NCBI GenBank assembly: GCA_951406725.2
Contig: OX597830.1
Span: forward strand, 43,772,001-43,836,000
Length of the DNA: 64,000 nt
Source: Octopus vulgaris
Lineage: Eukaryota
Reading direction: 5' to 3'
Shown: positions 9,030 to 16,250 of the stretch, in pieces
Layout: each line of letters begins with the position of its first letter
Numbering within the stretch: position 1 is the stretch's first letter
Notes under the pieces: generated by a model
The model's database searches: none
What the model was told of the DNA's origin: nothing
Seen by the model: the letters and a program-made list of their open reading frames with translations, nothing else
Translations under genes and position numbers: made by a program

Positions 9030-9575
9030 CACCTTATGGAGTTTCTTCCAAAACCTTTTCTACATACTGAGCAGGGCCATCTCCTTGAAGGAATCTGCAA
9101 TTTGTCTGTTTTGCTGCTTATCAATATTTCAGTCTTTGCTAAATTAACTCTAAGACCCTTTGATTCCAGACCTTGCTTCTATACCTGAAATCTCTTCTCT
9201 AGTTCTGGTAGTGATTCAACAATAAGAACAAAATCATCAGCATAAAGGAGCCCCTAAGGGCAGCTAGTCTTATATTCCTCAGTTATAGTTTGGAGAACTA
9301 AGATAAACAAGAGGGGGCTAAGAACCGAACCCTGGTGGACTCCTACTTGTACATTAAACTCTTTGCTATACACATTGGCAACCCTCACTTTACTAACAGC
9401 ATCTAGGTACATGGCTTGTATGGCTCTCACTAACCACTCATTTATCCCTAGCTTCTGTATTGACCACCAGATAAGGGAGCAAAGGACCCTGTCAAAGGTT
9501 TTTTCCATGTCAGCAAAAACCAGAAACAGAGGTTTATTTTTGGCCATGTATTTCTCCTGTGGCTGCCTCACCAGT
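9030..9575 (-). mobile_element. RTE LINE internal RT fragment
   Basis: DMEKTFDRV...GVHQGSVLSP. Confidence 0.85.
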
Positions 9576-9707
9576 GTCATGTTTGACAATTTACATCACA
9601 ACTGGAATAACCATGAAATTTCATTTTATTGCAAAAGATTTAAAGACATTAAAATTCCAAGCAAGTTATAAAAGATTCAGCATTACTGTTGAAGGAAATA
9701 AAATCTA

Positions 9708-11018
9708 TTAGGTTGGCAACTAAGTTCCCACTGTTTTTTAAATTTAAATTTTTTAAATGGATTAATAAAAAAATAGCAACTAGTTAATCAATAATGTATT
9801 TACCCTTGTTGTTTACAACTTCTTCCCAACATTCAACAGGATTCTCAATACCTTGTTGGTATTGAAAATCACCCAATTTCAACCTGAAAAATCACCCAAT
9901 TTCGACCCAAAAAATTGATCCAACCAAGCTCTCAATTCTGCGTCAGTATTGAATGAAACTCCGTGCATAGCATTTGAAAGAGATTAAAAGAGGTGGAAAT
10001 CCATTAGTGCCAAATCAGGAGAGTACGGCGGGTGTGGCAGCACTTCTCAGCCATGCGTTTGAATGGCTTCCTCAGTCATATTGGTGATATGAGGGCAGGC
10101 GTTGTCGTGCAGCAGAACTCCATGCTGACGATTAGGTCTTTTCTCCTGAATAGCCATGTTGAGTCATTCCATCTGTTGAACATAGAGTTCCACGTTGACC
10201 ATTTGGTTCCGTTCAAGCAATTCGTAATGGATAATCCCTTCCCAGTCGCACCATACGCACAAAATCGTTTTACGCGGATGAAGATCTTGTTTCATGCGCG
10301 GTGTCACTTGTTTACCGGGGCTAAGCCATTCCTTACGCTGCTTCATATAGATGTACAGGCACCATCTTTCGTTGCCAGTAATAAGTCGGTAAAGAAATTG
10401 TTGCTTGTGTTCATGAGTTGAGCAGTAACGAACAAGCAAACCAGCGGAGATTGTGGCTCGTTGATTTTTGTTGTTGTCACTTAAAGCATGCAAAACCCAT
10501 GCTCCATACTTTTGAACCTTTCCCATCGAGTGAAGATGCTTCTCTATAGCAATGTGGGAGCATTCCATTTTTTCTGCCAGTTCCCTTGATGTTTGATGAG
10601 AATTTTCATACAAAAGTTGGTTTAATCACTCTTCATCGAACTCAACAGAACAGCCAGAATGAGGTGCATCTTTGAGGTCAAAATATCCATTTTTGAACTT
10701 GGCATACCAATCACGAGCGGTTCTCTCAGCTATGGCACCCTCTCCATACACAGCACAAATGTCACGAGCATCTTTTGTGGCCTTAGAACCTTGATTAAAA
10801 GCAAAAAGAAAGAGGTGTCGAAAATGCTTGTTTTTCTTAACTTGACATTCTATTTTAATGATCTGAAAATAAACAAAAATTAACTAAAATTAACTAGAAA
10901 AAAATAGATTCTAAAATAATTCAAAAATAGAATTCTCCAAAAAAATAGATTCCAAAATTTAAAAATGCAATAAATTCCAAAATTTAAAAAAACCACAGGA
11001 ACTTAGTTGCCAACTCAA
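9708..11018 (-). mobile_element. Full-length (~1.3 kb) mariner element, degenerate transposase
   Basis: TIRs ttaggttggcaactaagttcc / ggaacttagttgccaactcaa with TA TSDs; WVLHAL (WVPHEL), ITGNERW and YSPDLA motifs; frameshifted. Confidence 0.95.
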
Positions 11019-11081
11019 TAGTTATATGCTGTGAGAAGCAACATTTCTGTAAACAAATGAGATAAGAATATTTACACCTAC

Positions 11082-11108
11082 CAAGTTTAGTATTGTCTTG
11101 AATCTTTT
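11082..11108 (-). CDS. Candidate 27-nt microexon (EKIQDNTKL), linker between CUB2 and CUB3
   Basis: Polypyrimidine acceptor ttttgatatttttcag, donor gtaggt, symmetric phase 1-1, no stop. Confidence 0.45.
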
Positions 11109-12833
11109 CTGAAAAATATCAAAAGGTAAAAATATTAATTGAATGCTTTTGTGGAAGGAAGATTAAATCCAAATAAATATATGCATTACTTCCCTTAACC
11201 CTTTTGCTACCATATTTCTCTAGAAATAAACTGATTCTGTTTCAATTAATTTTGAAAATGCTGCATTTGGAATATAAATATACCATTGACCCCAGTGCTC
11301 AACTTGTGCTTATTTCATTGAACCAAACCAATGAAAGGCAAAATCGACCTTGGTGGAATTTGAACTCAGAACATAAAGACTGACGAAATACTGTGAAGCA
11401 TTTTGGCCAGTATGCTACCAACTTTGCCAGCTACAAATCGCCTTAATTTGGAACAATTTTGATGGAGGATTTTAATTTAGATCGCTTTAAAAACTGGAAA
11501 CTTGTATCATAGAACCAGAGGCAGTCTGAAGCAAGATGGCATCAAAAGGGTTCAGTACTGCTGCCCCCTCGATAACTGTATGGCTTAACTTAGATTTAGT
11601 TATTGGAAGGTTTGGACACCATTCTTTGTAGGCAGTCTTGAAGTTAATCCTAGATAGTTATTATTGTAAAGAATAGCAGAATATCAGATTGATAGACCTG
11701 TGAAGAATAGTAGAATAGCAGATTAATAGGTCTGTAAAGAATTGTAAAGAATAGTAGAACAGCAGATTGATAGAATGACTAACTTAATGTCTTGACGGTC
11801 TCTTTAGGCTGACTTTAATTTTCATTCTTTTATTGTTAGTAAAATAATTACTAATCAAATACTGGGTCACTTTAATTAACCGTTCTCTTCCTCTCATCAA
11901 ATATGTACCCTTGGGCCTCTGTTAGAGATCCTAATTGTTATTATCAATCTTTCCTTCTGGTTTTATCTTCAGAGGAAGATGTTGCCATTTATCCTTTCAG
12001 GATGAATAAAACACAATCCCCCCTTGAGCATTGGGGTCAATGTAACTGACTTAATCCTTTCCCCACAAAATTTCGGGCCTTGTGCCTATAGTAGAAAGGT
12101 TAATTAGAATTCTTACATTGCCAAAATACTGGATGTTTGTCCAAATGTTTGGTAATAACATCCCTTAATTCTCCAACAAGTTCCACCTCCAATTGCAATT
12201 GATCCAGATACAGTAAAGACAAAGTTGTTGTTTTTTAAATATCAAAGAGATATTGTGAGTAACTCATTAAGAACTATGTAAAAGGTATACATGTCTGTGG
12301 AGTATTCAGCCACTCGCATGTTAATTTCATGAGCAGGCTGTTCCATTGACCACATCAACTGGATCCCCCATCATCATAACTGATGGAGTGCCAGAGAAGA
12401 ATACATTACAAATAAAAGATTATTAACAACTTTTACCTTCTTCCTCTTTCATCATTATAGAATTCTACCCTTTTTCGGTCCCCTATACATGTTAGCATAT
12501 TATTGGCTAAGTCTTTCTGCAACCATCTGCTAAGGTCATCAAATTGCCTTTACTCTCCATCTTTCCTCACTTCTTCACCTCAGTTTCTCAATCGGCATCA
12601 AGAGTTCAATGCTTCATGTTCTCATGTGATGTCCAATGAACTTTGCATGTTGTCTCCTTGTGCCATTTTCAAGGAGTTTCTACTCTCCTAAGGACTTGAC
12701 TGTTTGTAACATTACCATTATAGGATATCATCAGAATTCATCTAAGAAACTACATTTCAGCAGCATTGATAAGCTTTTGTTTGTTGATCCTCCAAGACAC
12801 ATTGCCACATGTAAGGATGGGTTATACATATAC

Positions 12834-12916
<83 letters not shown>

Positions 12917-12964
12917 CACATATATATATATAGATATATATACATATATATATACATACATACA

Positions 12965-12997
<33 letters not shown>

Positions 12998-13010
12998 GTA
13001 TATATGTATG

Positions 13011-13100
<90 letters not shown>

Positions 13101-13190
13101 CCAATACAAGAAGAAATAAAAATATATAAAATTGTATAAAATTATCAAAAGAAAGCACAAGGTTTGGTTTATTTCCAAAATTCAACAGAC

Positions 13191-13353
13191 CTGATAGATA
13201 TTTGAAAGAAGCTTTGAATCCAATGTTTTCACTGTCTGAAGATGGTTTTGCTCCAGTGTAGAAAATCAACTGAAGACTGTTGCTGTTAGAGACAATGATT
13301 GGTCTCTGGAAATGTTTTATGGTCAGTGGAGTGTTCTGATTGTTCTCATAAAC
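13191..13353 (-). CDS. Multi-CUB-domain protein exon (CUB2 C-half: VYEN...[14 protein letters not shown]...[10 protein letters not shown])
   Basis: CUB S-x-x-N-x-L-x-L-x-F and GFKASF motifs; ttaaag acceptor, gtctgt donor; phase 0-1. Confidence 0.88.
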
Positions 13354-13411
13354 CTTTAAGAAAGACAGAAAGGAAGAATCAATGCATTTACATGGCAAAA
13401 TAGTTTATTGA

Positions 13412-13467
13412 TGCCGTCGAGAGGTAGGCCCCGAAACGGCGCGCATTCTCTCCTGATGACCCCATAC
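13412..13467 (+). ncRNA. Non-circularly permuted hammerhead-like motif, stem II unpaired
   Basis: UGCCGUC^GAGAGG / CCCC-GAAACGGCG / UCUCUC-CUGAUGA-CCCC. Confidence 0.5.
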
Positions 13468-14616
13468 ACTTGCTAGCTTCCGGTATACAGAGCTTTTAAC
13501 TGGTAGCACTTGCATGTGCAAGTTGTTTGCAAGACATCTCTATATTGTGCAGGTGTGGTTGTGTGGTTAAGAAGTTTGCTTTCCAACCACATTGTTTGGG
13601 GTTCAGTCCCACCATATGGCACCTTTGACAAGTGTTTTCTGTTATAGCCTTGGGCTGACCAACACCTTGTGAATGGATTTAGTTGAGGGAAACTAAAAGA
13701 AGCCTGATAAGTGTGTGTGTGTATTTGTGCCCGCGTTGGTGTGTTTACATCTCTGTAACTTAGCATTTTGCCAAAAAGAAACTGATAGAATAAGTAGCAA
13801 ACTTTAAAATCTAATTAATCTCATTCATTCATTATCATTGTTGCTTAATGTCGGTTTTTTTGTTTTTTTTTTATGCTGGCATGGGTTGGATGGTTTGACA
13901 GAAACTGGCAAGCTGGATGGTTGCACCAGGCTCCAGTCATCTGTTTTGCCTTGGTTTCTACAGCTGGATACCCTTTAATGCCAGCCACTTTGCAGAGTGC
14001 ACTGGGTGCTTTCTATGACACCTGCACAGGTGCTTTTTTTTACATGATGCCAGCAGAGGAAATTATCAATTTTAACCATAGATCATCATCAGGAATATAA
14101 TTATCCATTATGTGCACGATTTCAGACTCAAATAGAACTAGGAACCCTTTTTTAAAATTAAAGGTAGTAATGTTCTTTTTCTTTTTTATGGTTTAATTAG
14201 AGGAGAAAGAGCAGTCCCTTTCTTTAGTAACCTTGAGACAAGTGGGAGATAAAGGGGAAGCTATTTAGAGTAGGGACCTGATCCAAGTGTTTGCAACAGA
14301 TTAGATTCTAATAAAAGTACCCATAAATCAAATAGGGTGTGTTAAAACTAATCACAAAGCTTTGGTTGATCTGAGACTGTGGCAGAAAACACTTGCCCAA
14401 GGTGGGATAAAATCCAGAAACCATAAAAGTAGCCAAATAAACTCCTTGACCCTACAGACTTGACAGATTTTGAACAATTTAGTTATGTGAACACTGCAAA
14501 GCTGTGTAAGCTGTGCATGGGAAGCTGTGTATGTAAAGGCAGGTTTGATTTCTGATTGAATCATTTGAAGTATTTCACCATGATAAAGAAATGAAAAAGG
14601 AGGGGGAAATGCTTAC

Positions 14617-14810
14617 CTGCACTGTAGTGTCTTGTGCAATATCCCAATCATCAAAGACAAGTTTTATGAACCCATTTGGATCCAGATTTCGTATTGAATA
14701 GATGAAAATTTCTCCATTGATTGCATAGCCTCTCGGAAAGTTTGGAGAATGAAAAAATCCATCACTAAGAGTTCCTTTTTGAGGATATCCAGAAAATTCT
14801 TCCTTTTTCA
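14617..14810 (-). CDS. Multi-CUB-domain protein exon (CUB2 N-half: ...GFFHSPNFPRGY...IKLVFDDWDI...)
   Basis: Classic CUB SPNFP-x-x-Y and I-x-L-x-F-x-D motifs; ttctag acceptor, gtaagc donor; phase 1-0. Confidence 0.9.
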
Positions 14811-15319
14811 CTAGAAAAATAAATAAAAATCAAACTTTTATTTTGTACCAAATCTAAATCCCTTTACATAACTCAAATAACCTTCCATCTATCTCCTGTT
14901 GCCCATTGCTCTCTTTCTCCATCAAAAGAATTTATTTTATTCATTTTCTTTCTTATTTTATTTTGAATCATGTCTTTTGTGAACAACAGCACCTCTGATC
15001 ATAGGGTTGGTTACAACCAACCATTGTTTGGTTTACTGAATTACCAAAAGCAATTTAACAGAAAAGATACTGCAGGTTATTTTTGTTCAAAAGTACCTGC
15101 TTATCAGTTTATGATCCATGTATATAAATTTATATTCATAAATACAAGCGAGGGGCTTCTTTCAGTTTCCATCTACTAAATCCACTCACAAGGGTGGGGC
15201 TAAAGTAGAAGACATTTACCCAAGGTGCCACTCAGTGATTATATACATACACACACACACACACACATATATATATACATATATATATATACATATATAT
15301 ATATACATATATATATATA

Positions 15320-16250
<931 letters not shown>

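Follow-up and report, generated by a model that had tools for sequence, protein, structure and literature searches.

Within the window (the whole 64,000-nt stretch of DNA analysed here), an S-G-C hammerhead core is found on the + strand at 13412-13467, with the cut predicted between 13418 and 13419 (Table 1). Its letters and both core motifs are as a preliminary description of this DNA had given them, and the window sequence also bears out the full pairing of stems I and III, the non-circularly permuted strand order and the inability of the two C-runs to pair with each other. What had been missed is the truncation of this copy, which starts 12 nt 5′ of the cut. The copy spans -12 to about +121 relative to the predicted cut and half of the motif is gone, including both upstream partners of the closing helix P2a and all except 2 nt of the upstream partner of P4. 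In nested folding the fragment alone folds no better than shuffles (z 0.34). The motif had been suspected to be disabled, and the window copy is indeed, judging from its sequence, an inert 5′-clipped fragment.

The motif lies antisense within an intron of a - strand host gene, 59-114 nt from the AG acceptor at 13354-13355. This intron setting had been recognised correctly, but the CUB exon named with it is weakly supported, the upstream exon matching CUB at E 0.08, which does not reach the cut-off, and its neighbour, the exon adjacent to the motif, giving no match. Because the insert is antisense and the host pre-mRNA has its reverse complement, the place of the motif beside the host acceptor is incidental. 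A SINE-like common repeat, which we take to be tRNA-derived, abuts the 3′ end of the fragment at 13541-13744. Other mobile-element fragments in the same introns stand at 9254-9595 (-), presumably an RT-like frame, at 10164-10883 (-), presumably a mariner-like transposase, and at 15239-16060 (+), presumably another LINE RT tail.

Table 1. Features of the motif-bearing fragment, in positions of the window
Feature	Position	Strand	Basis or remark
5′-truncated 3′ tail (3′ UTR) of a HERO-like RLE non-LTR retrotransposon	13407..13539	+	99.2% identity over 133 nt to near-full element L021:9183-9315
Block S: stem III 5′ strand and GUC triplet (GCCGUC^, 13413-13418), predicted cut after 13418	13412..13418	+	sequence
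Stem I 5′ strand (+1 to +6)	13419..13424	+	pairs with 13447-13452
Stem II 3′ strand (C11.1 side); putative partner an upstream G-strand supplying G10.1, absent from the window copy	13427..13432	+	
GAAA core (13433-13436) and stem III 3′ strand	13433..13440	+	invariant in 25 aligned homologues; recovered unimposed
P4 (stem I-stem II interaction helix) 3′ strand, equivalent to the type SGC ‘I’ helix	13441..13446	+	HRIMA-1 alignment compared
Stem I 3′ strand (13447-13452) and CUGAUGA core (13453-13459)	13447..13459	+	
Closing helix P2a 3′ strand: CCCC (13460-13463), 5-nt internal loop, 8-nt arm	13460..13476	+	also in nested fold of full copy
Usual copy-end region (+115 to +125)	13530..13539	+	98/100 sampled copies end there

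The source element and its copies

A search of the element's own genome with the 133-nt segment returned 2031 candidates, the 40 scored showing 98-100% identity, and an exact 35-mer gave 839 genome matches against 0 for the reversed control. The HERO-like element is present in at least 839 copies in the genome. Recurrence of the segment, which the preliminary description had set up as a check, was also found in contigs of independent sequencing runs: the element is present in runs of three organisms, and contigs in X1, X2 and X3 span the join between tail and 5′ UTR, evidence of presence only. Since the same 133 nt recurs genome-wide and in independent sequencing runs, the window motif is not a chance occurrence, and since the element occurs in runs of three organisms it is neither synthetic nor misassembled. 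The motif had been regarded as acting on the host intron, either as a lone ribozyme, disabled or activated in trans, or as sequence of foreign or synthetic origin. The window copy alone cannot form stem II and folds like shuffles, as such a reading would have it; as to origin, the reading is refuted by the number of copies, and the partners held in cis by full copies (see below), the presence in independent sequencing runs and the antisense orientation to the host gene leave it hardly credible.

The copies share a common 3′ end and vary in 5′ extent, and at +115 to +125, where sampled copies usually end, long copies go on, through the 5′ UTR of the unit that follows, into its ORF. Longer copies carry a single ORF of 1100-1175 aa with an RT (RVT_1, E 9e-18). 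Read from the sequence, this ORF comprises an N-terminal C2H2-like finger, the RT, a CCHC-like knuckle and an RLE-like C-terminus with PD..E-like residues, which we take to be the RLE motif; the RLE domain gave no Pfam match. The nearest solved structures to the element protein are R2 proteins, and its named homologues are from fish, lancelet, mussel and coral. A single ORF with RT, C-terminal CCHC and restriction-like endonuclease is the layout of the HERO clade, and in a by-eye comparison with sequences taken from the supplement of PMC7650587 the RT resembles HERO-1_BF, HEROTn and HERO-1_SP motif by motif, unlike the R4 sequence there. By its ORF layout and this RT comparison the element is placed as HERO-like. 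Its insertions are dispersed, often in AT microsatellites, and the ribozyme motif sits on the sense strand of the element, 3′ of the stop codon. Two scans for relatives in viral contigs found none.

A second family in G000 shows ~41% amino-acid identity to the first. In its loci (L071-L092) the motif follows the stop codon at a distance of ~350 nt, and this interval contains internal repeats as well as a TATA-like stretch, a possible promoter upstream of the cut.

The fold of complete copies and its conservation

Full copies carry the partners of both C-runs 20-60 nt upstream. A G-rich partner had been proposed for the C-runs, and they do need one, but it is found in cis upstream in full-length copies and not in trans. 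The order 5′ of block S is P2a strand, hairpin, G-strand and P4 strand. The P2a strand pairs with the sequence that follows CUGAUGA, the G-strand forms stem II proper with the stretch preceding GAAA, and the P4 strand pairs with the bases just 5′ of the stem I 3′ strand, while the hairpin between the upstream P2a strand and the G-strand closes a perfect four-way junction. Every helix is kept with different letters (compensatory changes) in the second family in G000. By these pairings the fold is a type-SGC hammerhead opened at the A9-G10.1 step, and we infer that the core stacks across the four-way junction on the stem II made with the upstream G-strand. Nested folding of full motifs recovers P2a, P4 and stem III (z -1.1, -4.1 and -2.8), and prefers an alternative in which the G-strand is paired with the stem I 3′ strand. 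The Rfam covariance models gave no hammerhead match in 11000-16000 of the window at E<=10 or in 8 homologous loci at E<=1; Rfam misses the motif owing to a backbone opening that falls within a block considered to be indivisible.

Homologues were taken from metagenome loci fetched by protein similarity alone (best 80 of 278), in which the S-G-C core was found on the sense strand in 33/80 and on the antisense strand in 0. The zero-gap junction of P2a, hairpin and stem II is present in 25/33 core loci, compared with 0-3.5% when the upstream sequence was shuffled, under a descriptor that required the first 3-4 pairs per helix and took its spacings from the same set. Pairs were counted with this descriptor on 25 distinct motifs and no covariance model was used, because the MAFFT alignment misaligns the upstream helices. 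Three to six pair types occur at most helix positions, with 4-6 per position in P2a and 2-5 in stem I; the preliminary description had named a lack of covariation among homologues as a refuting outcome, and pair variation is seen. P2a pairs 5-8, which were not imposed, form in 21, 19, 21 and 23 of the 25 motifs. The first stem II pair, C11.1 with the upstream G, is G-C in 23/25 and G-U in 2/25, and the canonical first pair of a hammerhead stem II, with 10.1 directly after A9, forms in 5/25. A CCCC>GGGG change, suggested earlier as a rescue, would create a canonical stem II with this latter first pair. A viroid hammerhead reportedly has a natural extra nucleotide between A9 and G10.1; no paper placing it there was found in the literature searched.

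The core itself reads C3-U4-G5-A6-N7-G8-A9, G12-A13-A14-A15 and U16-H17, as a hammerhead core does, and stems I and III adjoin it and vary in pairs. The triplets before the cut in the 25 homologues are GUC (12), GUA (8), GUU (4) and AUA (1). When helices alone were searched for, leaving out the core letters, 23 true motifs came out top-ranked among 50 hits, and all 23 have UH, GAAA and CUGAnGA (spacings from the same set); N7 varies and H17 is never G, even where the core letters were not imposed. At stem I position 3 (window 13421) the pair is G-C in 22/25 and A-U in 3/25, with neighbouring pairs varying freely, a constraint that suggests a tertiary contact.

The 47/80 loci lacking an exact core comprise 18 with less than 300 nt of room and 29 with more. 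Of these 29, 28 could be placed in a tree made by a quick method with poorly resolved deep branches (4/82 rows of <200 aa were dropped), 20 on a separate branch group and 8 among motif-bearing branches; three of the 29 (L102, L119 and L154) look by eye like mismatch variants. A sub-lineage of L101, L128 and L142 keeps the core and P4, failed the strict junction test and may be a further variant.

Taken on its pairing and its spread, the fold is almost certainly conserved and functional. It might serve the protein of the element as a signal for binding or priming, no cutting being involved. The fold lies ~120 nt from the copy ends, where a protein-binding signal is expected; against such a role, every catalytic nucleotide is kept, N7 being free and H17 never G in the unimposed search as well.

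Copy ends, tandem layout and the proposed cycle

Of the 100 copies that come first in position order, 89 extend through the cut; among the rest, 2 have their first base precisely at +1 and 9 begin further downstream. A genome-wide pattern with an A/T flank before +1 gave 13 hits, made up of 10 true starts and 3 mutated through-copies, compared with 0, 1 and 0 true starts at the control sites -3, +7 and +15 (p 8e-6); these control sites were few and author-chosen, and one required four A/T instead of three. A T stands just before +1 in 9/10 copies starting at +1, which may represent untemplated addition at a true RNA end. No enrichment was seen in the second family (4/11 hits at or within 2 nt of +1 vs 2/3 at a control site), and among copies with a 3′ end at the cut no clear case was found, the 2 hits being one mutated through-copy and one doubtful. 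The sequencing-run contigs, which as assemblies do not show RNA ends, have no start or end pile-ups.

If the fold only bound protein, the +1 starts would be RT stalls. The 89% of copies that pass the cut site and the lack of +1 enrichment in the second family would suit that account, but the starts are at +1 and not at -3, +7 or +15, and we would expect no RT barrier at +1 since the 3′ strands of the helices have already been copied by then. We therefore find a purely binding or priming role improbable. Self-cleavage at the predicted site in vivo, to which these genomic starts point, is very probable.

The layout of long copies bears on the form of the template. Nineteen loci were picked by ORF start. 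Truncation within the 5′ UTR accounts for 9 of them; in the 10 others the sequence goes on unbroken into the tail of a partial copy lying upstream. Of 89 passing copies, 88 show a clean junction at the cut and 1 an indel. Six loci have a cut-to-cut unit of 3736-3738 nt, and a seventh, which bears a deletion, has one of 3634 nt. A partial unit, a full unit and about 120 nt make up 7/20 long loci, these tandems reaching 122-1854 nt past the upstream cut, and two full units occur in 0/20; L352, with two short copies 3.5 kb apart and no unit between, was excluded from the tandem count. The tandem halves share private variants (absent from 20-24 other copies) in 3/7 loci, at 4 sites in L333, 1 in L334 and 3 in L344, with none in the four other tandems; the L333 halves differ at 9/1964 sites, no fewer than from other copies. 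Metagenome contigs with the motif run on into an ORF start in 5/33 cases, or 5/13 among those with >500 nt of room. Two full-length copies, L061 and L056, end with bases of the following 5′ UTR, so that their template must continue past +120. This head-to-tail layout through the cut fits a circular template, which we consider rather probable.

A ribozyme that cleaves while the template stays linear would explain the +1 starts equally well. Tandems would then come from uncleaved read-through of tandem donors, or from an RT that, on reaching the +1 end of a monomer, jumps to a second monomer at its cut 3′ end. End-to-end RT jumps usually add or lose bases, as known from R2 work, and the junction at the cut is clean in nearly every passing copy, which speaks against them. 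Read-through finds a parallel in the uncleaved oligomeric templates proposed for Penelope elements, in the part of PMC6765202 drawn on here, and accords with the absence of a two-full-unit locus from the 20 long loci; private shared variants, too, could stem from RNAs of one donor. The donors seen, however, are partial-plus-full, which means that copying in a linear mode could make them only shorter, and the ends of L061 and L056 need a template beyond +120. On balance a linear template is unlikely.

We favour the reading in which the split-core fold likely self-cleaves and likely lets the HERO-like element be copied from a unit-length RNA circle, and give it a probability of about 0.6. In the proposed cycle a partial-plus-full transcript would be cut at both motifs, yielding a 3.74-kb monomer that starts at +1, and its 2′,3′-cyclic phosphate and 5′-OH ends would be joined by the ribozyme or a host ligase. 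The RT-RLE protein would nick AT-rich DNA and start priming inside the RNA, at +115 to +125. If the monomer is unligated, the RT would run off after about 120 nt, leaving copies that start at +1; on a circle it would cross the cut seamlessly and might exceed one round, giving partial-plus-full tandems that restore the two-motif template. A cleaved, ligated and internally primed monomer would jointly account for the +1 starts, the clean passage and the over-unit copies. The fuller statement, that HERO LINEs replicate via a ribozyme-made closed 3.7-kb RNA, prime internally and have G10.1 supplied by a fourth strand via the four-way junction, we hold to be an even bet. LINEs prime at the 3′ end of linear RNA, a rule that a circular cycle with internal priming would, if true, contradict.

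Some further features of the copies were noted. L335 (G000:C11:84627500-84637400) consists of two copies whose 5′ ends face each other and are joined, both with a separate +122 end, beside a third partial copy; the pair may be a twin-primed insertion at one break. Short GGAAAGAC-like repeats ~20 nt apart follow the priming region (+155 to +242 in the L333 unit) and also occur downstream of the motif in the distant relatives L107, L109 and L135, and of 9 copies whose truncation falls within the 5′ UTR, 7 break off at these repeats or close by. Possibly the repeats are sites of protein binding or start sites. The idea that a 7-mer close to the beginning of the ORF acts as a trans substrate was dropped, the site not being the 5′ end of the element.

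Comparison with known systems

SGC hammerheads were shown to cleave by Eckert et al. 2023 (PMC10085705). In the parts of that paper drawn on here, block C is assumed never to be interrupted by more than 1-2 nt, SGC motifs are found only in metatranscriptomes and not in genomes of known organisms, and a search of the supplement for HERO or Octopus found neither. The cleaving HRIMA-1 has a 1-nt bulge at the A9/G10.1 step, and its alignment shows a single U between CUGAUGA and the stem II strand and then, after 1 nt, the interaction helix (PMC10085705). Measured against type SGC as presented there, the HERO motif has the same S-G-C order, all core nucleotides, the stem I-II interaction helix, a linker of 2-4 nt from stem I to stem II, and a gap of 0-1 nt between the stem II strand and the interaction helix that comes next. 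In type SGC, however, the stem II 5′ strand follows CUGAnGA after the 1-nt bulge; in the HERO motif it lies 5′ of block S, a closing helix and hairpin replace the A9-G10.1 step and block C is not contiguous; the HERO motif, moreover, resides in animal retrotransposon DNA. No description of split-core hammerhead wiring was found in the literature searched, in which type SGC is covered only by Eckert 2023.

The motif family is a widespread, strongly conserved split-core hammerhead variant and is probably active. If it cleaves, its architecture lies outside the six block orders proposed in 2023 and would be the first non-circular permutation abundant in animal genomes, and the A9/G10.1 junction would suit the attachment of regulatory domains to engineered hammerheads. 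Possibly the split-core hammerhead also underlies a circular mode of replication in a clade of RLE LINEs, which would, if this is true, gain a Penelope- or viroid-like cycle.

With the HERO clade, as described in the portions of PMC4640811, PMC9004415 and PMC7650587 used here, the element shares the single-ORF layout and dispersed insertion (PMC4640811, PMC9004415), the RT motifs compared by eye (PMC7650587), and relatives in fish, lancelet, mussel and coral. A ribozyme, head-to-tail layout or circular template for HERO was not found described in the literature searched, most subscription journals being outside its scope. Penelope-like elements and non-LTR retrozymes resemble the HERO-like element in having a hammerhead in the repeat unit and partial tandems, and cleavage, circularisation and tandem insertion have been proposed for them, according to the sections drawn on (PMC6765202; bioRxiv 10.64898/2026.07.22.740005). 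Their hammerheads are minimal and of type I, and they have either a GIY-YIG endonuclease or no ORF, whereas the HERO-like element belongs to the RLE LINEs and its hammerhead is large and pseudoknotted. R2 and L1Tc are alike in that a LINE ribozyme would generate the 5′ end of the RNA by cutting it out of a longer precursor; in the same part of PMC6765202 that ribozyme is of the HDV class and sits at the 5′ end of a linear element, whereas the HERO-like motif is of the hammerhead class and lies ~120 nt before the usual 3′ end of copies.
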